A stretch of 64,000 nucleotides of DNA from positions 97,120 to 161,119 of the IMG/VR virus record IMGVR_UViG_3300029288_000082, one strand, 5' to 3'. The notes below the pieces were generated by a model. It did not search any database, had not been told where the DNA came from, and saw only the letters and a program-made list of their open reading frames with translations. Every line of letters begins with the position of its first letter. Within the stretch, counting starts at the first letter, position 1. Below, one piece after another: positions 49,661-62,930 of the stretch. Origin of the DNA: a virus (lineage: Duplodnaviria; Caudoviricetes). Position numbers and translations under genes: made by a program.

Positions 49661-51271
49661 CTACCCGGAATCGCGGGCCTTTTTCTGCACCCGAGCGCGG
49701 TACGCTGCGGCATCTGCGACGCTACAGCACGCCCGGCAGGCGCCGGACAGGCCATCCCGGGCCCGGGCCCGCCGGGCAAACGCGGCCAGGGGCAGCACGG
49801 CGCCGCACCGGCAGCACTGCTTCCGGCCCTCCGCGGCGTACGGGTTCTCCTTGCGCAGGGCCAGCTTGGGCTTGCTGCCCCCGATGTGCCCCCCCAGGGC
49901 CTCGCACACGTACACGCCCCCGTTCCGGGCCAGGTTGCGCGCGTACGTCCGCGGCAGCACCACGTGGTCCACCCCGCAGTAGGGACAGAACACCGTCACC
50001 GAGGCCGCCTGCTCCTTGGCGTAGTGCCGGTCCCGGATGGCCTTCCGCTGCGCCTTGGCCCGGTCCTCGTAGGTATGATCGTCTTGCTGGGTGGCCAAAT
50101 ATCGATGGGCCCACGCTATGACCCGAGCATCCTTTCCGAGAGCGCTATCACGCTCCGTCCACACCCGCAGAGGCACACCTCGCGCGATCGCGTAGGCAGT
50201 TGAATCCGCCAGCTGATCCTTGACGTCCGGCTCATCCAATCGCGAGAACGGCTTGACCTCCCAGATCTCCTCGTGGCCATCCGAAAAAGTCACCAGGAGA
50301 TCTGGGTTGCGCCAGCGACCGTCCGCTGCCTGGAACGTCTCGCAACGCCGCACCGCGGCCACGAGCGGATCCTGGTCCAACTCGAACAGGCAACGCAGCT
50401 CGTAGGATGATCCGAAATAAACCGCGCCGCCTCCCTTGGCAGTGGGAAACACCCCACGCACATGAGCGTGCCTGTACACGCCATCCGCGTGCATCTGAGC
50501 AGTGGACGCCGACCGACGTGCTCGACGCTGGTCCCGCACCTCTGTGTTCAGGCAGTAGATCCAGCACACCTTCCCAGCGTCGTACACCCTCGTCAACCCG
50601 CGCTCCTGCGCCCACTCCCACTCCGTGAGGTCCGCCGGACACCCCGTGTGGCTCTTGCGCTGGCTCTGCTTCGAGACACGGCGGCCGTCCCGCACGTAGA
50701 AATAGTCGGGCCGGTAGGTCTTGTGCCGCGCGAACCCAATCCGCTCATACACGGCACCGGGCGTAAGGCGGTTGTCGCTGTAGCTCACGATATCGTCGTA
50801 CTGGCGCTCCCGAGCCCAGGCCACCGCAGCCGAGAACAGCCGGGACGCGCCGCCCACCACCTGCACCCCGGGCGCGAAGCACAGCCGATCCAGCACGATC
50901 CAGTTCTGCGAGATCTGTCGCGGGTGGCGCCCAAGGGACAACACGCCAACCAGATCCTCCCCATGGAACAGGCCGAACCGCACCAGGGCCAGCCGGTTGC
51001 TACCCTGCACATGACAGCGATCCAGGAATGGGGTGGCTTGCGCCCGTGGAATCTCCCGCACCGCGCAAGCCCGAGCCCCTACCCGTCTCTCGAACAGGCC
51101 AGCGCGGGCCTGCACAAAGGCTTCACACTGCGGCCTCCGACGCTCCCATTCATCTGAGAACAGAAACACCTGATCGGGCTCCCCAGCTAACCCATGTGCC
51201 AGTCTCGACAGCACCGATGCATCCCCAAGGTCAATCACCGCCACCATGATTTTTCCCACCTTGAATTCCAT
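49661..51271 (-). CDS. Free-standing homing-endonuclease-like protein (GNAT/Hef-like domain, TnsA-like PD-(D/E)XK nuclease, Zn fingers)
   Basis: FLDRCHVQG...VVGGASRL...SYSDNR...G.VYERIGF; F.SSYEL...NPDLLV...IWEVKP; lies directly after the MCP. Confidence 0.7.
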   Translation of the reverse strand: MEFKVGKIMVAVIDLGDASVLSRLAHGLAGEPDQVFLFSDEWERRRPQCEAFVQARAGLFERRVGARACAVREIPRAQATPFLDRCHVQGSNRLALVRFGLFHGEDLVGVLSLGRHPRQISQNWIVLDRLCFAPGVQVVGGASRLFSAAVAWARERQYDDIVSYSDNRLTPGAVYERIGFARHKTYRPDYFYVRDGRRVSKQSQRKSHTGCPADLTEWEWAQERGLTRVYDAGKVCWIYCLNTEVRDQRRARRSASTAQMHADGVYRHAHVRGVFPTAKGGGAVYFGSSYELRCLFELDQDPLVAAVRRCETFQAADGRWRNPDLLVTFSDGHEEIWEVKPFSRLDEPDVKDQLADSTAYAIARGVPLRVWTERDSALGKDARVIAWAHRYLATQQDDHTYEDRAKAQRKAIRDRHYAKEQAASVTVFCPYCGVDHVVLPRTYARNLARNGGVYVCEALGGHIGGSKPKLALRKENPYAAEGRKQCCRCGAVLPLAAFARRARARDGLSGACRACCSVADAAAYRARVQKKARDSG

Positions 51272-51364
51272 GCCGGAATGGTAACCAAACAATGAAACAA
51301 AAGCAAGGGGGGAGATAGCGCGGCCCTGTTTGGGGCCGCACCAATGGAAATGTAGAGGGGGAAG

Positions 51365-51387: not shown

Positions 51388-53010
51388 CTAGACCGTGGTC
51401 ACGGTGGGCAGGCCGGCGCAGGTGATGACGCCGTAGTACTCCGGCCGTAGCATGCGACTCGCGTAACGGGTCCTCACGCCTTTGCGCACGCGGAAGTCGG
51501 CCGGGTCGAGGAAGGACGGGGTGATCTGGAGCGGCACGTAGGGGGCGTAGACGTAGCCGGCGTCCAGGTAGCTGTTGCCCTTGAGGCCGACCAGGACCTT
51601 GTTGGCGGCCATGTAGGGGTCCTGGTAGACGGCGTAGCGCCTGAGCAGGGTGCCGACGCGGGCGATGCCGAAGTCCGAGGTCAGCGGCCCGTAGGACGGC
51701 GACTGGACGTTCTGCTCGATGCTGGCGAAGTCGCCGTGGGTCGAGAGCTGGTCCAGCAGGGCGCCGACGCCCGGGGGCACGACGATGAAGTTGGCCGGCG
51801 ACCGACCGCTGGCCCGGTGGATCTCCGCGCCCACCGCGCTGATCTTGGTGATCAGGTTGCGGATGGTCTCGATCTCGCCCGCGGTGCCCGCCGTGTAGGC
51901 GTAGGTGTAGGTCGCGGCGAACCGCGCGCCCGTCACCAGGGCGTCCACGATCTCGCGGTCGACCTCCAGCAGCACCTCGTTGGCGAACGTGCTGACCAGC
52001 TCGGTCTCCGCGTCGATGCCGTGCAGCGCCCGCATGTCATCCGCCGCCTCCACCGACCAGTGCGCCTTGAGCTTGCGGCTCTCGGCCTTCACCGTGTACA
52101 GGGCGATGTCCAGCCCGATGGACGGGACCTCGGCGCCGTTGGTGGACCCCACCTGCTCCCAGTTCACGTAGTACTGGAGGTAGATGACCGTGTTGTTCTG
52201 GAAGATCGACGCGACGCCGGTCTCGTCGAACGCGGAGATGGACCACGCGCCGGTGCCCACGACCAGCGTGCCCACCGTGGTGCCGTACTGGTCCACCAGG
52301 TTGTTGGTGACGCCGGTCGGGTCCAGCGTGGCCACGATGTCCAGCCAGCCCGTGGTGGCGTTGTCGCGCGTGCGGTAGTAGGCCACCACCGAGAAGGTGC
52401 GCTGGGCGTCCACGCCCGGGGCCCGCATGGGCGACCAGGCCGGCAGCCGACAGTTGGCCGACACGTTGGTGAGCGGGCCCGCGCCGCCGCCCGTCTGCGT
52501 GCAGACCACGTCGTAGTCCACGTACTCCGAGGAGTAGTAGCGCGCGAAGTTCTCGTTGATGTTGTCGCCCGCACCCAGCTGGCCACCGTAGTTCTGGTTG
52601 TACGGCTGGTTGGTGATGCCCAGCTGCGGGATCTTGGTGCCCTTGCGGTCGTCGTACTTCTTCTCGTAGTAGAAAATTCCACCCACGGGAGAAGTCATAG
52701 GTTGAACGGATACCAATTGATTTGCGATGAGGTTGGGGAACACCCGGCGCAGCACCGGGAACGCGTACTTGGTGAACGCGCCCGCGTTGGTGCTCAGGGT
52801 GTCCTCCTGCAGCTCCTTCACGTGCCCCATCTGGTTCTCCAGCAGCATCGCCGTGCACCGGCGGATGTAGCGGTGGTTGATGGGGTCCTGCGGCGAGCGG
52901 GGCGACAGCATCTTGGCCCAGCGCTGCTCGCAGGCCGCGCTGTAGCTCTCGTCGAAGATGGTGCCCTTGCCCTTGTTGCCCTGTTCGAGGATCTCTCGTG
53001 CTTCGGTCAT
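51388..53010 (-). CDS. Major capsid protein (T4 gp23-like)
   Basis: FPVLRRVFPNLIANQLVSVQPMTSPVG, ESRKLKAHWSVEAADD, EVDREI, YAPYVPL and TRYA motifs. Confidence 0.97.
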   Translation of the reverse strand: MTEAREILEQGNKGKGTIFDESYSAACEQRWAKMLSPRSPQDPINHRYIRRCTAMLLENQMGHVKELQEDTLSTNAGAFTKYAFPVLRRVFPNLIANQLVSVQPMTSPVGGIFYYEKKYDDRKGTKIPQLGITNQPYNQNYGGQLGAGDNINENFARYYSSEYVDYDVVCTQTGGGAGPLTNVSANCRLPAWSPMRAPGVDAQRTFSVVAYYRTRDNATTGWLDIVATLDPTGVTNNLVDQYGTTVGTLVVGTGAWSISAFDETGVASIFQNNTVIYLQYYVNWEQVGSTNGAEVPSIGLDIALYTVKAESRKLKAHWSVEAADDMRALHGIDAETELVSTFANEVLLEVDREIVDALVTGARFAATYTYAYTAGTAGEIETIRNLITKISAVGAEIHRASGRSPANFIVVPPGVGALLDQLSTHGDFASIEQNVQSPSYGPLTSDFGIARVGTLLRRYAVYQDPYMAANKVLVGLKGNSYLDAGYVYAPYVPLQITPSFLDPADFRVRKGVRTRYASRMLRPEYYGVITCAGLPTVTTV

Positions 53011-53030: not shown

Positions 53031-54674
53031 TTAGTCGGTCAGGCCGGCCAGCCGCTGCATCTCCTCGTAGGAGTTGCCGAAGGGATCCTTGTCCCCTCGG
53101 GTGCTGCTAGACCCGCGCCGTCCCTCGGACAGTTCCCGCTGGTCGCCGTGGCCGCGCTGCAGCCGCCGGCGCATCTCCCGCAGGTCCTCGTCCAACATGT
53201 CCGTCCGTCCGTACCGCGTCACGACCGCATCAACCTCGGCCTTGGAGGAGACGTCCTCCATCAGGCCCAACACCTCTCTACCGTTCGCCAATTGTGCTAC
53301 CTTCGCCGCCTTGTAGGCGTCCAGGGCCTCGGCCCGCAGAGCGTCCACCCGGGCTTCAAACCGGGTGCGCTCCTCGGCCAAGGTCTGCTCCGCCTGCTCG
53401 GCCTGGGCCTGCGCCTCCTCCAGGGAGGACAGCATGCCACGGCTCAACTCAGCTGCCTTGCCCAACCGCGCGTCCAACGATGCTACCTTTTCCTGCAGGG
53501 ACGACATCTCGCCCCGCAGCGTCGTGTTCTCTTCCAGGAGCCGCTGCTCTGCCGCCGACGGCCCCGGCGCCGGTAGCCGCTCATGCAGGAGCGCCAGCCG
53601 CTGCTCGACGTCCTGCTCCGACGTGAACTGCACGCCCTCCAGCAGGGCGCGGGCGGCCTCCGCCGTCTCCCCCTGCCCCAGCTGCCGCTCCACCAGCAGC
53701 TGCAGCCGAACCTGCTGCGCCTCGGCCACCGCCGCGTCCCGCGCCGCCTCGGCCTCGGTGCGCGCCAGCGTCTCGGCCTTCATGGCATCCCGCACCGCCC
53801 GCTCGTCGGGCTGGGTACGATAAGCGCCCACCATCTCCGCGATCTGCGCCAGGGTGGCCCGGGCCGCGCCCACCGATGGGTCGGCCGCGTACTCCTCGCG
53901 CAGCTGCTGCCCCAGGTCCTCCCGCGCCTCCAGCAGCGCCGCCGCCAGGCGTTCCTCGAACGCCTCCGTCATCTCCGTGCGAACACGTGTGCGCTCGGCC
54001 TCCACCGCCGCGTCCACGCCGGCCACGACCTTCTCCTTGGCCTTGGCCACGGCGTCCGCCGCCGCCTGCTCCTGGAGCTGCTGCGCCACCTCGGGGAACT
54101 CCGCCAGGAACTGCTCGGCCAGCGTGGCCGGATCCGCCTCCTCCACCGACTCCATGGTGATGGTGGGCACGGCCGTGCGCACCGCCGGGTCCGCCACGAA
54201 GTCGTAGGTCCGCAGCACGAAGTCGTCCTGGACCTCCTCGCCCTCCACCTTGCCAGACGAAGGGCGCGTGCTGCCGAAGCCCCGGCTGGACACCGGCACC
54301 GGGATCCGCGCCTCCACCAGCGCCCGCAGGTCGCGGCCCGTCGTGGTGTTCAGTATCTCCGCCTCGCCCATCACCCGCCCGTCCGCCTCCAGCCACAGAT
54401 CCGTGATCACGTGGCTCACCAGGGACAGCGAAGATTTCCCGCTCTGCGGATGGTCGAGCTGTCCGAGCACGCGCCGGTTCTCCAGGTCTTCCTTCAGCCG
54501 CTTGATCTCCCGCTCCATCAGCTTGGTGCTGTAGATTCGGCCGTTCAACGTCGGCGTATCGCAGCGCCCGAACTCTCCGCGCGCCACCAGCTTGCCGGAC
54601 CCAGGGGCGCCACGTGCCTCGGTCAACTCGAACACCGATGGCGCCGTGGTCTCGATCAGCAACTGCTTCGACAT
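53031..54674 (-). CDS. Prohead protease (gp21-like) fused to a coiled-coil scaffold
   Basis: NGRIY, LGQLDHP, VSSRGFGS and YDFVADP catalytic motifs, then a long Ala/Glu coiled coil; RBS before MSKQLLIE. Confidence 0.9.
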   Translation of the reverse strand: MSKQLLIETTAPSVFELTEARGAPGSGKLVARGEFGRCDTPTLNGRIYSTKLMEREIKRLKEDLENRRVLGQLDHPQSGKSSLSLVSHVITDLWLEADGRVMGEAEILNTTTGRDLRALVEARIPVPVSSRGFGSTRPSSGKVEGEEVQDDFVLRTYDFVADPAVRTAVPTITMESVEEADPATLAEQFLAEFPEVAQQLQEQAAADAVAKAKEKVVAGVDAAVEAERTRVRTEMTEAFEERLAAALLEAREDLGQQLREEYAADPSVGAARATLAQIAEMVGAYRTQPDERAVRDAMKAETLARTEAEAARDAAVAEAQQVRLQLLVERQLGQGETAEAARALLEGVQFTSEQDVEQRLALLHERLPAPGPSAAEQRLLEENTTLRGEMSSLQEKVASLDARLGKAAELSRGMLSSLEEAQAQAEQAEQTLAEERTRFEARVDALRAEALDAYKAAKVAQLANGREVLGLMEDVSSKAEVDAVVTRYGRTDMLDEDLREMRRRLQRGHGDQRELSEGRRGSSSTRGDKDPFGNSYEEMQRLAGLTD

Positions 54675-54917
54675 GGCTTCTTCCTCGCTCATTGGTGCGG
54701 GCCCCGTCGGCTCACCACTGCTTCCACCGCTTGAATTGGAGGCCGGTGCGGGCGATGGGATTTCGATCTGTCTTGCGCTTGGCAGCGGACGAGACGCGGC
54801 GCCCCGTTTTGTTGCCATCAGGCCGGACAGCTTGCTGTGCCCCATCGAGCCCACTCAGCTCCCGCCTCCCGGACGGATACGCCGTCCTGCGCTTGCGCCC
54901 CTCGTCAGCGAGGGGCC

Positions 54918-55868
54918 CTACCGGTTTCCCGGGACTCCGTCCAGCCGGTCCAGCGAGCGGGTGATCAGAGCCACCACCGGCCGCAGCTCGGCCAGGAAGG
55001 CGTCCGGAGCCATCACGGCCTCGTCCAGCCGCCCCGCCTCGTAGGAGGACGCCAGCGGCGCGACCGCCTCGTTGAACACCTCGGTCACGGCCACGTCGTC
55101 GAACTCCTGCGCCAGCAGGTCGATGACGTTGTCCACGTGCTCCAGGATCTCGTTGCGCACGTCCTGCGGCTTCTCCACGCTCTCGGAAAGCAGGTTCTCC
55201 AGCTCCACCGCGAACTCGGAGGTCTGGCCCTTGGGATGGCGCCGCCCAGCCAGCCGCTCCGACTTGGCGACGGATTTCCGCCCCTTCCCCATGGCCCACC
55301 GACCGGATGTTCTGGTGATACGCGCCAACTTGCCCGACCCACCAACCGCCTGTGCGGAGCGAATACATGGGCTCTTGGGATCCTTCGGGTCCTTCTTCCG
55401 ATAACCCTTTTTGCAGACGTAACTGGCCTGCATCGACATGGATCCAGCCTTGTAGCGCCTGGTGCGCTTCCCCATCGCCTCGCCCATCAGCCGCTCCGCC
55501 ACCGCCGTGGCGCGCTCGCGAACGCCAGGGATGTTGGACGGGATCCGCTTGGCCTTGAGGTTCTCGATCAGCTGGCCAACCTGCTCCTCGGACAGCGCGT
55601 CGAAGGGCAGCGCCTCGATGCGGTCGAAGAGGGCGGGCGTGACGAACGGCCCGTCGATCGGGTCGTGCACGGACTCGTCGTACTCCTCGTCATCGTCCTC
55701 TTCCTCTTCCTCGTCCGGGTCGGGCTCGTCCTCGGGCGGGGCCCCCTGCTCCGTCATGGAGAGGGGCGTGCCCAGGGCCAGCTTGGCCATCCGGTCCTCG
55801 GTCAGGTCGCCCAGGCCGAGCGCCTTCAGGTCCTCGTTCAGCGTGTTCTCTGGAATCCTCGGTTTCAT
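54918..55868 (-). CDS. Putative prohead core protein (acidic/basic), with probable -1 frameshift extension to 54712
   Basis: Between portal and protease; poly-D/E tract plus K/R-rich segment; ends in G GGA AAC CGG TAG followed by a hairpin. Confidence 0.7.
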   Translation of the reverse strand: MKPRIPENTLNEDLKALGLGDLTEDRMAKLALGTPLSMTEQGAPPEDEPDPDEEEEEDDDEEYDESVHDPIDGPFVTPALFDRIEALPFDALSEEQVGQLIENLKAKRIPSNIPGVRERATAVAERLMGEAMGKRTRRYKAGSMSMQASYVCKKGYRKKDPKDPKSPCIRSAQAVGGSGKLARITRTSGRWAMGKGRKSVAKSERLAGRRHPKGQTSEFAVELENLLSESVEKPQDVRNEILEHVDNVIDLLAQEFDDVAVTEVFNEAVAPLASSYEAGRLDEAVMAPDAFLAELRPVVALITRSLDRLDGVPGNR

Positions 55869-56885: not shown

Positions 56886-59627
56886 TCACCTCGTGCGCGG
56901 CGCTCCACGCCGCAGCCGCTTGGCGACGCCATCTACGGCGCCGCCCGTTCGCTCCACCGCCCGCAGCAGACGCCCCTCCATCTGCCGCACCTCCTGCAAC
57001 GCCTTGTCCAACCGAGGATCCACGCCCTCCGCTGGCGCCCCACCAGCACCACCCATACCAGGAGATCCACCCATCATCTCGCCGCCCGTCGTAGGCGCCC
57101 CCAAGGCCAAGGCGCCCTCGGGCCCCAGCTCGGGGAACCGTTGCATGATATCAGCCTGCACCGATGCTTGCGCCAGCGCCTGCGCCTCCGCCTCGTTGGC
57201 TTTGGCCTCGGACGCGAACAGCGCGTCCTCGTCGCTCAGGTGGAAGATGTTGGCCATGATCCATGGCGACGTGAAGAACGGCTGCAACGCCGCGGCCAGC
57301 GCGGCCCGCGCGTTCCACACCTCCACCTGCTGCATCTCGAAGATGGCGCTGGGCGCGCTCATCTGAAGCGCCCACTTCACGCTGTCCGGGTCGATGTTCA
57401 GCGCCGCAAGGTGCACCCGCACCACCTGATTGAGCCCCGCGATCCACTCGCGCTGCACTCTTTCAATCAGGCGAGAGAAAGCAACGTCCTCTTGAGTCAA
57501 GGCGCTCCGGTTCGTCACCTCAGTGCCGCCCAAGTACTGCGGCGGAATCCGCAATCCGCCATACAGCTTCTTGAGGAAGTACTCCATGACGCCGGTCTCG
57601 TCGTAGTCGGGACCAGCCAGCGGCTCAATGCGCGTGCTCTCCTTGCCCCCGCGCGTCGGGACAAAGAAATCCTCGGAGTTTTTGACGAAGATCCCAGCGT
57701 CCAAGGCGAAGTTGTGCCACACGTCCACGGTGATACACCCTGTGTCCTGAGTGTCAGATAGCCACTCCACGCTGATCACCTTGTGGTTTTCCGTCGCCGC
57801 AGTGCAAAACGCCCGCCAGTCATCGTACCCGGCCTGCTGCACAAACGACCGAAGGTTGTGCACGTCAAAGATCGTGCGTTTCCTGTTCGGATTCAGTGTG
57901 CGCAGCTCTTCGAAGAGCGGAGAAGACTGCACCGCCGCAGTAGCGTCGCGCATCCGAAGCGTTGGGTTCTCTTGCACCATCCTCCGCAGCTCGGGCAGTA
58001 AACCATCTGGATACTTGATCGCGATCTTCTCCGAGCGGATGGCGTTGTCGGCCTTGTGCTTCGGACTCTGATTATACACGATGAGGTGACGCCCAGAGTT
58101 ACGCGCTCGGTTGCGTCGGGCGATCTCCCCCGGGTGATCCTTGGCCCACTTCCGCACCCGCCTGACCAGCGCACCGGCATGCCGCAATCCGTGCTCGGCC
58201 GGGCTCACTACTTCCAGGTTCTCCGGGTAATTGTTGCGCCGCCGTTCGTCTATGTGGTGCACTATCATCCCTGTCGGATCACCCAGGTATGCCTCCGCCA
58301 CTAGCCGGTGCGTCTGCCCCAACGCCTTCCACCTCTCAGTGCCGCGCTCGCGGTGATCTTGGTGCACAACGTACTCGTATCCATTGTTTGCAATGCCCCG
58401 GTAGAGCGGCATCACGGAATCGCCCGGCTCCAGGAACTGTGCCTCCTTGTATGTGCCGTTTCGAAGAAGGAACTGGTGATCAGGAGTCGCGACTACCTCT
58501 TGGCAGTTGTCCAGGGTCACGCGCACCACTTGGGCAGTGCGCCGCGTGACGCCTGCCCACGAGATCTTTCCAGGCTTCACGTGCTTTGTCTCAGGATCGA
58601 TGGAGTACACGTAGTTCTGCACCCCGGCCTCGTGATCCATGATCAAGTCGCGCAAGGTGCGAACCGTGCTGTTGAGCAACGGGATGCGTGTGTCCAAGGA
58701 AAGGCACATTTCAAGCGGGTTGAACCGGAAATCGATCTTACCAGTGGCCGGGTCGACGATCCGCTTCTTCTTGTAGCGCCGCCGCACGTCATCGACCAGC
58801 GCCTTTGCCTCGCGCGGGGGGATCTCGCCAGTGTCCACGTAGAACGCGAAGCGCCCCGGCGCCTTGGTGAGCTTCATCACCAGCGAGTTGTCCTCCAGCA
58901 TGAGGATGCGCTTCCACACCCAGCGCACAGCATCGATCATGCTGAACCCGTAGAGGGCGCGCATCTGCTTCCCGCGCATGCGCCAGTGCACCACCTCCCA
59001 CGGCTCGAAGAACACCAAGCCGCCCGCCGCCTCGCGATCTTTGATGCGCTGCAGATCCTCGCTGGTGCTGATCGGCACCGAGAACATCCCGGTCGGATCC
59101 TGCACGAAGCCCACCAGCTCGCCACGGTCGTTCACGATGCGCCGCACCGTGGGCGGCGGCAGCCAGTTCAGGCCCAACACGCCGCGATCGTTCACTACGA
59201 TCTCGGCCATTGCGTTCCCATATTTACAGAAGGTGCGCACTGCGGCCCAGAGGTCGTCTTCAATGCGGATCCGGCGATCCAGCATGTCGTTGATGATATC
59301 GCGAACGATCTTATCCTTGGAGGTAGCCCAGATCACACGGCCATGCACCGCGTCAGCCACCGTGGCGCTGTCGGCGTACACGTCGAGGGCCGCCGAGATC
59401 AGCTCCGTGTCGTCCATGTTCTCGTAGTCGGCGTACCGCAGCAACAGATCCGAGTCGACCGCGAGCATGGTGGCCAGCTGCTGGTAGGGCGCGGACAGGC
59501 CGGTGTCGAGGTTGGAGGGGAACACGCGGGGCATAGCGCCCTCGCCAGAGTTGCCGCGAGCCAGGGTGGTTACCTGCCCCGTGGTCTGCCGCCGGAAGAA
59601 CCGCGCGATGCTATCCCGCCAGCCCAT
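56886..59627 (-). CDS. Portal protein (T4 gp20-like), containing an intein
   Basis: YENMD..ELISAALDVYAD, CKYGN, VVHWR, WKRILMLED, RFAFYVDTG, EDFFVPTRGG and EDVAFSR motifs. Confidence 0.95.
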   Translation of the reverse strand: MGWRDSIARFFRRQTTGQVTTLARGNSGEGAMPRVFPSNLDTGLSAPYQQLATMLAVDSDLLLRYADYENMDDTELISAALDVYADSATVADAVHGRVIWATSKDKIVRDIINDMLDRRIRIEDDLWAAVRTFCKYGNAMAEIVVNDRGVLGLNWLPPPTVRRIVNDRGELVGFVQDPTGMFSVPISTSEDLQRIKDREAAGGLVFFEPWEVVHWRMRGKQMRALYGFSMIDAVRWVWKRILMLEDNSLVMKLTKAPGRFAFYVDTGEIPPREAKALVDDVRRRYKKKRIVDPATGKIDFRFNPLEMCLSLDTRIPLLNSTVRTLRDLIMDHEAGVQNYVYSIDPETKHVKPGKISWAGVTRRTAQVVRVTLDNCQEVVATPDHQFLLRNGTYKEAQFLEPGDSVMPLYRGIANNGYEYVVHQDHRERGTERWKALGQTHRLVAEAYLGDPTGMIVHHIDERRRNNYPENLEVVSPAEHGLRHAGALVRRVRKWAKDHPGEIARRNRARNSGRHLIVYNQSPKHKADNAIRSEKIAIKYPDGLLPELRRMVQENPTLRMRDATAAVQSSPLFEELRTLNPNRKRTIFDVHNLRSFVQQAGYDDWRAFCTAATENHKVISVEWLSDTQDTGCITVDVWHNFALDAGIFVKNSEDFFVPTRGGKESTRIEPLAGPDYDETGVMEYFLKKLYGGLRIPPQYLGGTEVTNRSALTQEDVAFSRLIERVQREWIAGLNQVVRVHLAALNIDPDSVKWALQMSAPSAIFEMQQVEVWNARAALAAALQPFFTSPWIMANIFHLSDEDALFASEAKANEAEAQALAQASVQADIMQRFPELGPEGALALGAPTTGGEMMGGSPGMGGAGGAPAEGVDPRLDKALQEVRQMEGRLLRAVERTGGAVDGVAKRLRRGAPRTR
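57678..58706 (-). mobile_element. Intein in the portal (343 aa) with in-frame HNH endonuclease
   Basis: Begins CLSLDT; block B ATPDHQFL; HNH THRLVAE...VHHID...NN.PENL; ends HNFALDAGIFVKN|S. Confidence 0.92.
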
Positions 59628-59671
59628 GAGCCCTCCACCAGCAGCAGCGAACACGTGTGCGCTTGTCGCCC

Positions 59672-62600
59672 TCAGTCATCGTCGCCCCCGAAGTAGATCG
59701 GGGCCAGCAGCTCATCGCTGCGCGTCGCCCGCGTTGCCTGCCGCACTTCGCTCACGTCCACCTGCTCCAGGGGCACCAGCGGCGTCACCCATTGGTGCTC
59801 GTGCGCCACGATCTCCCCCATGGGTGTATCAGCATCCGCTCCCCACGGCAAGCGAGCCGCCCGCTGAGATAACCCGAGGACCACACCAGCAACGCTATCA
59901 GCGCAGTCCTTGGTACTGTGACGGGTGTGGTCCACCTTGCCCTTGATCCGGTCGTACTCCAGGGCGCGCAGCTCGCCCAGCAGGATCGGGTAATTGTAGT
60001 ACTCGATGCGCCGCTCGTAGATGGCGCTCTTGAGCGCGTTGTAGCCATCCATCGAGGTATCCAGGGAGAGGATCTCAGCGTGCACGCCGTGCCGCCGCAG
60101 TTGCTGGTGCATCTCCACGTACATGTAGGTGTCCGTGGACACGCCCGCAATCGGGAAGCCATGAGCCTGCAACGCGTACACGAGGTTGCGCAGGTCCGGC
60201 AGGTAGATCTGCTCACCAGGGGGCGGACGAATTGCCAGCATGGCCTCGATGATGAAGTGGGGAGCCACGTCTTGGTAGCGGTTGCCGTCGCCGTCGCGCC
60301 GCACCACTTCAACGTACCGATCGATCCTGCCCATGCAAAATCCCGTGCTATCCCCAGAGATCGACACGTCGATGTGGACCCAGCGGGGGGCACGCGGCGC
60401 CTCCCGTGGAACCCACGCCTCCTCAGTGAAGCCGCCTGGCAGCCGACGTTCCACCGGTCTGCACAGGTACTGCCAGTCCCATCCGCCCGGGCTGCCCGAG
60501 ATCCAGGTCTCGGCGCTGAACGGATGGCGGCGATCCTTCTGCACGCAAGAATCGATGGCCTCCACCCGCTGGAAGAATGCGCTGATGGCCTGTGTGCTGA
60601 TGCCAGCGATGTCGCGCAGCGAATCCTCCAGGTTGCCCTCGAAATCATCGCGGTACTCAGCAGGCACCTCAATCACCCACGCCTCGTGCTCCTCCAGATA
60701 CTCATCGTCCAGCGCATCCACCTCCTCTGGCGACAGGATGCGGCTGCGCAAGCTACTGTGGGCGCACAGCACATGGAACACCTCCCCGCAGAAGAACTCT
60801 TCTGGGCGAGCTGACCACTGCGAGTGCTCCAGCACGTACACGTCCGGATCATCCGCCGCCTCCCGGATCTTGCGCTCAGTGAACGAGTCCACCGTAGCAG
60901 CAGACGAGGCCAGCACCACCATCCCGGGGAGGTCGCCCGCCACCCGCTGGAAGCGCGACTTGATGCGGCGCACCAACGACCGGTACACCTTCTCCACGAT
61001 ATCGAAATGGGCCGCCGTCAGCTGCTTGCCCAGTGTCTGCTGGATTTGCTGGGCGTTGCGTTTGGGAGGGAAGTTGGTATTGTGCACCACACATCCGTCA
61101 GCCACGAACGTGCGGCAGGTAGTCTCGATGCTGTAGGTCTGCTCCGGGGGAAGCAAACAAACGCTCGTCACCCGATCAAGGTGGAACTCGGGGGGTAGGT
61201 CGGCAACGCGCAAGCACTCGGGACGGCATCCCCCAAGGGCGCGACCGTCCGCATGGTCCGGACCCGCACCCGCTTCTGTCGCACTCCCTCCATGAACGCC
61301 TCCGTCACGAAGGGGCCGGTCCACACGCTCGGCAGCGGCTTCGAGTTCAGAGACAGCAGGAAAGGCATGCACCGCTCCTGGGCCCACGCCCACAGCGCCA
61401 GCACCCGCGCACGATCCCGCGCCTTGTAAAAGCTCGTCTGCGACTTCGCCTCGACCAACACTTGCACCCCGTCGTCTCGGGTCACCAGAAAATCCGGAAC
61501 CGTGAGGCGCCGCTGCCCCGCAAGCGTGTACGGGATAAACTCCAGCTGATCCTCGCCCACGACACTGCGCACCCCCGGCGTCGCACACAGGTGCAGGGCC
61601 AGGGATTGCTCGCGTGACGACCGGCATGGCACCGTCCCGCCACATGGCGACGACACATGGAACCGGTACGTCCGCGTCCGATTCTGGATCGACCGCGCAT
61701 TCCCCTCCGAAATCCGCTGCCGATCCGCATCCGTGTGCGGGTGCCCCGGCCTTCCCTTGCGCACCGCACTCATCCTTGCGCGGGCCTCTGCCGAGTGATG
61801 TTGTCCCTTCCGCGGCATCGTCTACCCTCCAGACCGTTTCGTCCCCGACCTGCACCGCAGCCGTCGGCACGTAGATCAGGGTGTCACCGCGCCGCACCAA
61901 CACCGGGTGGTCTGGAGAAAGTTCCACGGCGCGAGGCGAACACGTGTTCGCAGCTTCGAGGCGCACCAAGGGTTGCACCGAGGACGCGCGCATCCGGAAC
62001 GGCACCCAGTGCCGCTGCCCAGTTGTGTGATCCAGTGCTTCCACCAGTAATCCATCGCGCGCATCCTCTCCAGCGTCCCAAAGATCTCCGACCGACCGCA
62101 CCTCAAAAGTGGCACCGTTTTGCACAGTTAGCAAGCATTTTTTACCTACGCACTCATCACAGATAGCGGCCACGACGGCCTGCCCGATGGCCCGCTCCGC
62201 ACCATACGAACCCACCGTCACCGAGATGTTGTTGGGAAACAGAGTGTAGTCGGTGGAAAACTTGGGCGGGAACCGCGCCATGAAGTAGGGCGACAGCTTG
62301 ATCTTGTCGTCCACCGCGGTCTTGAGCACCGCCCGGCAGATCGGCAGCGACTTGCTGACCAGCATCAGCACCATCTGCGTGCCAGCCCCCACGCCGAACG
62401 TGGTCTGCGGGTTCTTCAGGCAGCTCAACTCGTACAGCAGTCGGCAAAAAATTACACTGGCAACAAACGTCTTTCCATATCCGAGGCTGCCTGCCAGTAA
62501 TACCTCCCGGTACGGAGCAGAGAACAGGTTGATCAGTACATCCCGCAACTTTGGATACAGCGTGGTCATGGAGTCGCCAAGGTAGAAGGGGTCCTCTAGA

Positions 62601-62815
62601 AACTGGGCCATCGGCACCGGGATCGTGTGGTACAGCCCCTCCTCTAACTCCCGGCCCATGGCGGCCGCCACTTCTAAATCCCCCTCGACCAACAGCGCAT
62701 CGAACAGCTGCTTGGCCTCCGGGGGCAACCCCGCCAGCGAATCCTTCACCGCCCGCGTGTCGTCGCCCACCGTGCGCTCGCTGCGCCGACGCCCGTCCTT
62801 GCCCACCCGGATCAC
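59672..62815 (-). CDS. Terminase large subunit, containing an intein
   Basis: Walker A GSLGYGKT; Walker B AAICDE; coupling motif LASS; nuclease VHIDVS..GD and KVDH...TKDCAD. Confidence 0.93.
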   Translation of the reverse strand: MIRVGKDGRRRSERTVGDDTRAVKDSLAGLPPEAKQLFDALLVEGDLEVAAAMGRELEEGLYHTIPVPMAQFLEDPFYLGDSMTTLYPKLRDVLINLFSAPYREVLLAGSLGYGKTFVASVIFCRLLYELSCLKNPQTTFGVGAGTQMVLMLVSKSLPICRAVLKTAVDDKIKLSPYFMARFPPKFSTDYTLFPNNISVTVGSYGAERAIGQAVVAAICDECVGKKCLLTVQNGATFEVRSVGDLWDAGEDARDGLLVEALDHTTGQRHWVPFRMRASSVQPLVRLEAANTCSPRAVELSPDHPVLVRRGDTLIYVPTAAVQVGDETVWRVDDAAEGTTSLGRGPRKDECGAQGKAGAPAHGCGSAADFGGECAVDPESDADVPVPCVVAMWRDGAMPVVTRAIPGPAPVCDAGGAQCRGRGSAGVYPVHACGAAAPHGSGFSGDPRRRGASVGRGEVADELLQGAGSCAGAGAVGVGPGAVHAFPAVSELEAAAERVDRPLRDGGVHGGSATEAGAGPDHADGRALGGCRPECLRVADLPPEFHLDRVTSVCLLPPEQTYSIETTCRTFVADGCVVHNTNFPPKRNAQQIQQTLGKQLTAAHFDIVEKVYRSLVRRIKSRFQRVAGDLPGMVVLASSAATVDSFTERKIREAADDPDVYVLEHSQWSARPEEFFCGEVFHVLCAHSSLRSRILSPEEVDALDDEYLEEHEAWVIEVPAEYRDDFEGNLEDSLRDIAGISTQAISAFFQRVEAIDSCVQKDRRHPFSAETWISGSPGGWDWQYLCRPVERRLPGGFTEEAWVPREAPRAPRWVHIDVSISGDSTGFCMGRIDRYVEVVRRDGDGNRYQDVAPHFIIEAMLAIRPPPGEQIYLPDLRNLVYALQAHGFPIAGVSTDTYMYVEMHQQLRRHGVHAEILSLDTSMDGYNALKSAIYERRIEYYNYPILLGELRALEYDRIKGKVDHTRHSTKDCADSVAGVVLGLSQRAARLPWGADADTPMGEIVAHEHQWVTPLVPLEQVDVSEVRQATRATRSDELLAPIYFGGDDD
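61079..62152 (-). mobile_element. Intein in TerL (358 aa), inserted directly after Walker B DE
   Basis: Begins CVGKKC; block B LSPDHPVL; ends TYSIE...FVADGCVVHN|T. Confidence 0.9.
61168..61818 (-). CDS. NUMOD3 plus TnsA-like PD-(D/E)XK endonuclease, nested out of frame in the TerL intein
   Basis: GGAGG-7nt-ATG; KGQHHSAEARARMS..RKG (NUMOD3); RSSRE, IPY, PDFLV and LVEAK motifs. Confidence 0.85.
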   Translation of the reverse strand: MPRKGQHHSAEARARMSAVRKGRPGHPHTDADRQRISEGNARSIQNRTRTYRFHVSSPCGGTVPCRSSREQSLALHLCATPGVRSVVGEDQLEFIPYTLAGQRRLTVPDFLVTRDDGVQVLVEAKSQTSFYKARDRARVLALWAWAQERCMPFLLSLNSKPLPSVWTGPFVTEAFMEGVRQKRVRVRTMRTVAPLGDAVPSACALPTYPPSSTLIG

Positions 62816-62930
62816 GGCGCCCCCCCAGCACCAAGGGGGGAACCCAGCGCACACGTGTTCGCTCTAAAGACCGAACGATCGCCGGTCGTCTCCTGCGGAT
62901 TTTTCGCAGTTTTCTGTGAATCGTTCGGCA

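Follow-up and report, generated by a model that had tools for sequence, protein, structure and literature searches.

A conserved −1 frameshift site in the T4-type head module of uncultured phages would append a basic tail to a putative prohead-core protein

The programmed frameshifts of tailed phages are best known from the tail chaperones and from a few capsid and tube genes. Here we describe a site of this kind in the head module of an uncultured phage, within a 64,000-nucleotide (nt) stretch of DNA that was analyzed as a whole (positions 97,120 to 161,119 of IMG/VR record IMGVR_UViG_3300029288_000082; hereafter, the window). The site consists of a slippery heptamer in the last codons of a gene that we call gene A (0-frame coding sequence in the list of open reading frames [ORFs], 316 amino acids [aa]; minus strand, 54918–55868, counting its stop codon TAG), followed by a short ORF in the −1 frame that we call the tail and that fills the space before the prohead protease gene. 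The recoding mechanism is a textbook one; its location among the prohead-core genes of a T4-type head module is new, and we found no description of a frameshift in prohead-core genes in the full-text literature, the searched collection being incomplete.

Two families of described systems lie closest. Closest by location are gene 10A/10B of phages T7 and T3 and gp5A/5B of Lactobacillus phage A2, where ribosomes shift to the −1 frame close to the 3′ end of a head gene and so extend the protein at its C terminus (cited in PMC10885494 and PMC5221750). Gene A resembles these genes in having the slip site in the last codons of a head-module gene, a slippery heptamer with a structure downstream, and a predicted minor longer form whose proportion would be set at translation. 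It differs in that the T7/T3 and A2 genes encode major capsid proteins, whereas gene A encodes a separate protein of ∼316 aa between the portal and the protease, and in that its extension is short, very basic, apparently disordered, and encoded by a separate gene in related phages. The second family, closest in its logic, comprises the G/GT frameshift of the lambda tail assembly chaperone and its counterparts (Xu, Hendrix and Duda 2004; PMC5009743), in which a conserved −1 slip at the 3′ end of a gene likewise joins two modules, one tethering the other during assembly; the heptamers are of the same family (G GGA AAG/G GGA AAC) and are kept across phages with little sequence identity. G GGA AAC is itself a recognized shift site (PMC5009743), and in Burkholderia phage KL1 the gp18/gp19 tail chaperone is predicted to shift at GGGAAAC directly before TGA (PMC3483164), a heptamer-stop arrangement identical to the one described here. 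However, the lambda-type frameshift belongs to the tail module, where it precedes the tape-measure gene, and the virion contains neither of its products, whereas the present one belongs to the head module, where it precedes the prohead protease gene, and its products probably enter the prohead. Gene A is located not between tail tube and tape-measure genes but between the portal and the S77 protease and Gp23-type capsid genes; it has no match to a capsid-protein family, and the Gp23-type major capsid protein is encoded by a separate gene (minus strand, 51388–53010; Pfam/PHROG family search). Because gene A encodes neither a capsid protein nor a tail chaperone, the frameshift gene belongs to neither family.

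Phage T4, which is not known to load any core protein by frameshifting, is the third relevant comparison. Its prohead protease gp21 cleaves at L/I-X-E, and short (10-residue) N-terminal leaders direct internal proteins to the core before being cut off (PMC9026906); the internal proteins IPI-III and Alt and the core proteins gp67 and gp68 form the comparison set (PMC9026906, PMC3012670). The present locus is like that of T4 in gene position (portal, small core genes, protease, scaffold, capsid) and in having an S77 protease, and both gene A and the stand-alone versions of the tail described below carry short leaders ending in L-x-E, a motif that recurs at the junction of gene A and the tail. 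In contrast to this likeness in arrangement, neither gene A nor the tail has sequence similarity to gp67 or gp68: comparison by hhalign of our alignments of gene A homologues (A1) and of fused and stand-alone tails (A7) with these two proteins gave probabilities of 0.05 to 23% and no real alignment.

The slippery site and its conservation

Gene A ends in the 0 frame with GTC CCG GGA AAC CGG TAG (TAG at 54918–54920), in which G GGA AAC (54924–54930) is a heptamer of the X XXY YYZ form. It is followed by the 7-nt spacer CGGTAGG (54917–54923), which holds the 0-frame stop, and then by a predicted stimulatory stem-loop (GCCCCTCG, loop CTGA, CGAGGGGC; 54897–54916), all on the minus strand. The stem has 8 bp, seven of them G:C and one U:A, and a CUGA tetraloop. 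Folding gives the hairpin −17.9 kcal/mol (z −3.8; 0 of 200 shuffles fold as well), and it is present in both the minimum free energy and the centroid folds of its 76-nt context; no U-run lies 3′ of it, and a search of Rfam returned no family match at the site. From CCG (54922–54924) the −1 frame runs for 70 codons to a TGA at 54712–54714, this tail coding region (minus strand, 54712–54924) being conserved as protein. A slip would add 70 residues after Asn315, so that the sequence reads G-N, then P-V-G-P-L-A-D-E-G-R-K-R-R-T-A-Y and on to K-R-W-K-Q-W before the TGA, turning a protein of 316 aa (34.8 kDa) into one of 385 aa (42.5 kDa). An earlier note, made on this DNA from its letters, had described the heptamer, spacer, hairpin, and −1 stop, and was correct to the base; it had also described a −1 frame with no convincing start of its own, which agrees with the lack of any ATG, GTG, or TTG in that frame between heptamer and stop, and a basic tail of ∼70 aa, which matches the 18 Lys and Arg residues and isoelectric point (pI) of 11.7 found here.

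We propose that ribosomes very probably undergo a programmed −1 frameshift in the final codons of this head-assembly gene. Most ribosomes would read GGA AAC CGG TAG and release the 316-aa protein. In a fraction of them, the tRNA-Gly in the P site (GGA to GGG) and the tRNA-Asn in the A site (AAC to AAA) would slip back by one base, with help from the GC-rich hairpin that lies 7 nt further on and probably also from the nearby stop codon. The slipped ribosomes would read 70 more codons and yield the 385-aa protein with its basic tail, predicted to be largely disordered; the ratio of long to short form would be fixed at translation, and the tail would be tethered to the gene A product.

The window alone could not settle whether the −1 frame is coding, because at 67% GC this frame is also open for 253 codons upstream and the tail has a third-position GC content (GC3) of only 0.75, compared with 0.89 to 0.95 in the neighboring genes; comparison with relatives does settle it. 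DNA of relatives was collected from three sources, to which one distant locus (L033) was added, giving 41 loci with 30 distinct tails and GC contents of 0.37 to 0.73; the loci are related, so that counts across them are not independent. G GGA AAC is present in 29 of the 30 distinct relatives, and the remaining one (L020) has TTA AAA AAC, which contains another canonical heptamer, A AAA AAC. The heptamer abuts the 0-frame stop in 12 loci, and in 18 a single codon separates them. The Gly-Asn ending of gene A homologues is nearly invariant (A1). GGA accounts for only 7.5% of the Gly codons in the head genes of the window and for 1 to 9 of the 15 to 32 Gly codons in the homologues. The codon before the heptamer varies in its amino acid (L, S, P, R, or E) and always has G as its third base, where the frequency of G is just 0.21 to 0.52. 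Codon choice indicates that the heptamer is conserved at the nucleotide level, beyond the needs of the encoded protein.

The structure downstream is conserved in position and stability while its sequence differs. A stem starts 6 to 8 nt past the heptamer in nearly all loci, and the 50 nt there exceed the background windows of their own locus in stability (median rank, 0.006). The stems are of at least four unrelated types; besides that of the window these include GGCGCCC/GGGCGCC, GGCCACC/GGTGGCC, a long stem of 22 bp, and CCGCTTATC/GGTAAGCGG, the last with a loop of 11 to 39 nt that falls exactly at the indels of the peptide alignment. No good consensus came from an alignment of nine sequences with mixed stems, since these are not homologous, and the subgroups were analyzed separately. 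In the subgroup with the 22-bp stem, 90.9% of cells pair, compared with 38 to 48% when the partners are slid; six pairs show compensatory two-sided changes, and none of 500 shuffles attains the covariation score, the structure having been derived from the same eight sequences that were used for the covariation test. The persistence in homologues of the heptamer, the −1 ORF, and a hairpin, which the earlier note had put forward as a check on its reading, is thus seen across this set, for the hairpin in nearly all loci.

The −1 frame and its competing explanations

The −1 ORF is the sole frame that is open in every locus, even in those with a GC content of 0.37 to 0.42, and it has a length of 66 to 82 codons. 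The ratio of nonsynonymous to synonymous changes (pN/pS) is 0.37 in this frame, compared with 1.24 and 1.34 for the same nucleotides in the other frames, and the entropies of its three codon positions (0.71, 0.54, and 1.33) place the variation mostly at third positions. Mean column identity of the tail is 62% (alignment A6), which is above that of gene A (49%; A1). These comparisons indicate that the frameshift signal and the tail are under selection. Tail start codons are lacking altogether in the window and in L006 and are scattered and nonaligned in the other loci, where the conserved tail residues L7 and R14 to Y18 lie upstream of the scattered internal starts. In the low-GC loci a stop in the −1 frame lies merely 1 to 8 codons upstream of the heptamer; since the frame opens so close to it and there is no shared start, entry into the frame must be at the heptamer.

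The relatives also locate the start of the protease. Alignment to the PHROG protease profile begins only at residue 59 of the long ORF that opens at GTG 54854, and upstream of the profile start the protease frame has a pN/pS above 1 and contains stops in most relatives. The probable start in the window is the ATG at 54674, where M-S-K-Q-L-L-I-E matches the M-P-x-L-L-I-E of relatives (conserved M-x-x-L-L-I-E); in ∼20 of the 30 distinct loci the tail stop lies 1 to 4 nt before the protease ATG, which then opens M-P-x-L-L-I-E. The gap of 243 nt, which the earlier note had placed before the ribosome-binding site of the protease, extends from gene A to this ATG, and the upstream protease start (54854 or 54845) that it had named as refuting its own reading is ruled out by the profile beginning at residue 59 and by the ATG right after the tail stop. 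With the heptamer and −1 ORF of the relatives, this downstream protease start supports the note's interpretation of a conserved programmed −1 frameshift. Read-through of the TAG into the protease frame was considered as well and rejected, as a second in-frame stop follows (TGA, 54855–54857) and the frame is not conserved. Gene callers are inconsistent in this region, and give a 200- to 260-nt gap, an extended protease, or fragments of 43 to 92 aa.

An alternative to frameshifting is that the −1 ORF is an independent small gene, translated through its own (perhaps noncanonical) initiation or through termination-reinitiation. Stand-alone tail genes with their own ATG or GTG do exist in five loci (L028, L029, L031, L051, and L052), and the clear gene A homologue of L032 (hhalign, 99.9%) ends without the heptamer, an ATG and a Shine-Dalgarno sequence being present inside the tail ORF of that locus. 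Within the clade that carries the heptamer, however, no start is conserved, and the conserved residues at the beginning of the tail precede such starts as there are; moreover, all 30 distinct loci preserve the heptamer at synonymous sites, counting the one that has swapped it for a different slippery heptamer, and a stable stem 6 to 8 nt past it would hinder rather than help initiation there. We regard an independent gene as improbable in this clade. A change of frame made by RNA polymerase through transcriptional slippage would have the same protein outcome, and the six-A run of L020 (TTA AAA AAC) would suit it, but the runs in GGGAAAC are of only three bases, compared with about nine where slippage is known (PMC5009743), and a precisely spaced downstream stem-loop is a hallmark of ribosomal frameshifting, so that we consider slippage more improbable still. 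Least likely of all, and refuted by the comparative data as far as computation goes, is that the region is noncoding spacer or the 5′ part of the protease gene, with the heptamer and the hairpin (perhaps a terminator or processing site) there by chance: this would fit a high GC content that keeps all frames open, the low GC3 of the tail, and the protease frame open from GTG 54854, but not purifying selection on the −1 frame only, a tail ORF that stays open at low GC, protease homologues that start past the tail stop, or a hairpin with neither a U-run nor an Rfam match.

Several observations weigh against a programmed frameshift as we propose it. First, in Escherichia coli, heptamers ending in AAC shift far less than those ending in AAG (PMC5009743), and the efficiency of slipping could be low here too; low efficiency of this kind would fit a minor long form. 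Second, the window's own stem is without a close relative, so that the covariation evidence rests on another stem type, and the most distant frameshift locus, L033, which encodes a remote gene A homologue (hhalign, 86.7%) ending in G GGA AAC TGA, has no significant downstream structure (z 0.33). Third, the arrangement in L032 implies that the tail can be expressed without a frameshift. Fourth, the low GC3 of the window's tail amounts to a weak codon bias, and this tail is also one of three that lack L-x-E near the junction, reading L-A-D-E (A-D-E) there.

The basic tail and the gene A product

The tail is basic, with a pI of 11.3 to 12.0, and structure prediction leaves most of it disordered apart from short helices toward the C terminus (predicted local distance difference test [pLDDT], 57). 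The helices are predicted within its most conserved block, D-R-N-P-I-A-R-T-G-L-Q-F-K-R-W-K-Q-W (minus strand, 54715–54768), in which residues R56, N57, P58, A60, R61, T62, and W69 of the tail are invariant or nearly so (A6) and which is common to the stand-alone homologues. When a profile of the tail was compared with 1.84 billion representative proteins, just 16 short ORFs were found, with no in-frame fusion and no other context, and the ESM Atlas gave no usable match for the tail.

The five loci with stand-alone tail genes, which are among these profile matches, belong to more distant T4-like phages. In each, the gene lies directly upstream of the S77 protease; four of the five have a recognizable Shine-Dalgarno sequence, and that of L052 has an ATGA overlap. 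Fused and stand-alone tails align from L-x-E-(G/A), through R-K-R-R-T-A-Y-x-S-G-R-x-E, to A-R-T-P-x-x-K-x-W (A7). The stand-alone proteins have 7 to 12 residues before the L-x-E, and, by motif match, all five leaders end in L-x-E. Among the frameshift tails, L/I-x-E occurs within the first 20 residues in 27 of 30 distinct sequences, and L-x-E-(G/A) lies 6 to 17 residues past the slip site. In the window, A7 places the L-A-D-E at the tail start (minus strand, 54901–54912) in the same column as the motif of the relatives, making it a putative prohead-protease site; the S/A-X-E motif reported for phiKZ is closer to the window's A-D-E than L-x-E is.

We note that in three of the loci with stand-alone tails (L028:1480–1562, L029:2240–2313, and L052:980–1056) the upstream gene of ∼330 to 350 aa ends in a long run of Asp and Glu, not in L-G-N, and that comparison by hhalign found the upstream protein of L029 not to be related to gene A.

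The alignment and gene order indicate that the tail is a separate small gene in sister lineages, which is a new finding. Because the distant phages encode the tail separately, with a leader ending in L-x-E, the tail is probably a packaged basic peptide that is released by the protease after assembly, a reading drawn from motifs and synteny alone. The S77 prohead protease would cut the tail free inside the head at the L-x-E of the junction, and the freed peptide may neutralize DNA charge or be ejected with the DNA. A more tentative idea, which we think possible but somewhat doubtful, is that the frameshift replaces a capsid-targeting leader: in sister lineages the peptide would reach the prohead by means of its own leader ending in L-x-E, whereas in this clade, with its start lost, it would ride on the core protein at a ratio given by the slip rate, to be freed at the junction L-x-E. 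Since the long form ends 1 to 4 nt before the protease ATG in most relatives, coupling may further let the slip rate set how much protease is translated.

Two arrangements are seen between the tail and the protease gene. In eight loci (L012, L013, L014, L016, L018, L019, L020, and L023) the tail ends in an extra K-T-G-K-(R/K)-G, the codons of which (e.g., AAG AGA GGA) form the Shine-Dalgarno sequence of the protease, and the protease starts 1 to 4 nt past the stop; in this subgroup the end of tail translation is therefore coupled physically to the start of protease translation. In loci with a 30- to 90-nt spacer, the tail stop is followed, before the protease start, by GCGAACACGTGTTCGC, a palindrome that is perfect or nearly so, or by a different GC-rich hairpin (L002:4188–4203 and L004:4179–4194, with similar elements in L006, L007, and L009); such an element might serve as terminator, processing site, or operator, and nothing clearly equivalent to it is present in the window.

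Gene A starts with an ATG that overlaps the stop codon of the upstream gene (ATGA), and its product has an acidic N terminus, a basic center, and an acidic helical C-terminal domain. The AlphaFold model is helical (pLDDT, 69.6; predicted template modeling score [pTM], 0.29). We identified 17 metagenomic homologues with 36 to 60% identity. Searches of annotated collections gave little: neither gene A nor the tail has a family in Pfam or PHROGs, tblastn with gene A and with a tail found nothing relevant in 50,697 phage records, blastn of the region gave acidic low-complexity matches only, and Foldseek comparison of the gene A model with BFVD gave 0 matches at E ≤ 0.001, the pTM of the model being only 0.29. 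The N-terminal leader (M1 to E12; minus strand, 55833–55868) ends in T-L-N-E and is similar to a T4-type capsid-targeting propeptide; L10 is invariant and E12 nearly so (A1), and (T/S)-L-x-E is found at residues 8 to 12 in 17 of 18 gene A homologues, as a motif match only. From its position between portal and S77 protease (synteny) and from this conserved leader ending in L-x-E (motif), we infer that gene A encodes a prohead-core protein or an internal, core-targeted head protein.

Across the gene A N termini the conserved leader reads M-K-T-K-L-V-x-x-(T/S)-L-x-E-(D/E)-L, resembling the T4 capsid-targeting sequence with its L-x-E site. Near the C terminus of gene A there is an invariant G-R-L-D-E, a possible second cleavage site.

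Genomic setting and significance

The T4-type head module occupies 51 to 63 kb of the window on the minus strand, as identified by Pfam and PHROG matches and the ORF list. It begins with a terminase (1,060 aa; 59672–62854) and a portal (922 aa; 56886–59654), each with an intein-like insert, and continues with a 355-aa ORF (orf355) between the portal and gene A. Gene A and its tail are followed by the prohead protease gene (53031–54674; Peptidase_S77, PF03420 and phrog_207), which includes a coiled-coil scaffold region, and by the capsid gene. The order portal, orf355, gene A (with the tail), protease-scaffold, capsid places gene A between portal and protease; the T4 order, for comparison, is 20, 67, 68, 21, 22, 23. 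Loci homologous to the gene A region have a Portal_T4 match. Of the portals at such loci, that of L004 has an insert (915 aa; Intein_splicing and HNH_3) and that of L002 has none (569 aa). Directly 3′ of the capsid gene in the window is a 543-aa ORF (minus strand, 49661–51292) with Cys-rich C-terminal motifs and no obvious head function.

The capsid protein has only 24 to 38% identity to those of cultured T4-like phages, and the source is a deeply divergent, uncultured T4-like phage. The window occupies the end of a 161-kb contig that was assigned to a metagenomic bin of 3.6 Mb. Gene A has 0 matches in 60 genomes related to this bin, and its relatives sit in viral and metagenome contigs, which makes a phage genome, not host DNA, the most likely identity of the contig.

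The frameshift is kept across a wide uncultured clade, in which GC content ranges from 37 to 73% and gene A identity falls to ∼35%. Automatic gene calling misses it, so that these phages are systematically misannotated here. The occurrence of fused and stand-alone versions of one small basic protein amounts to a natural experiment on the fixing of protein ratios by recoding, and the arrangement offers a testable model for how basic peptides may be loaded into the heads of T4-like phages.

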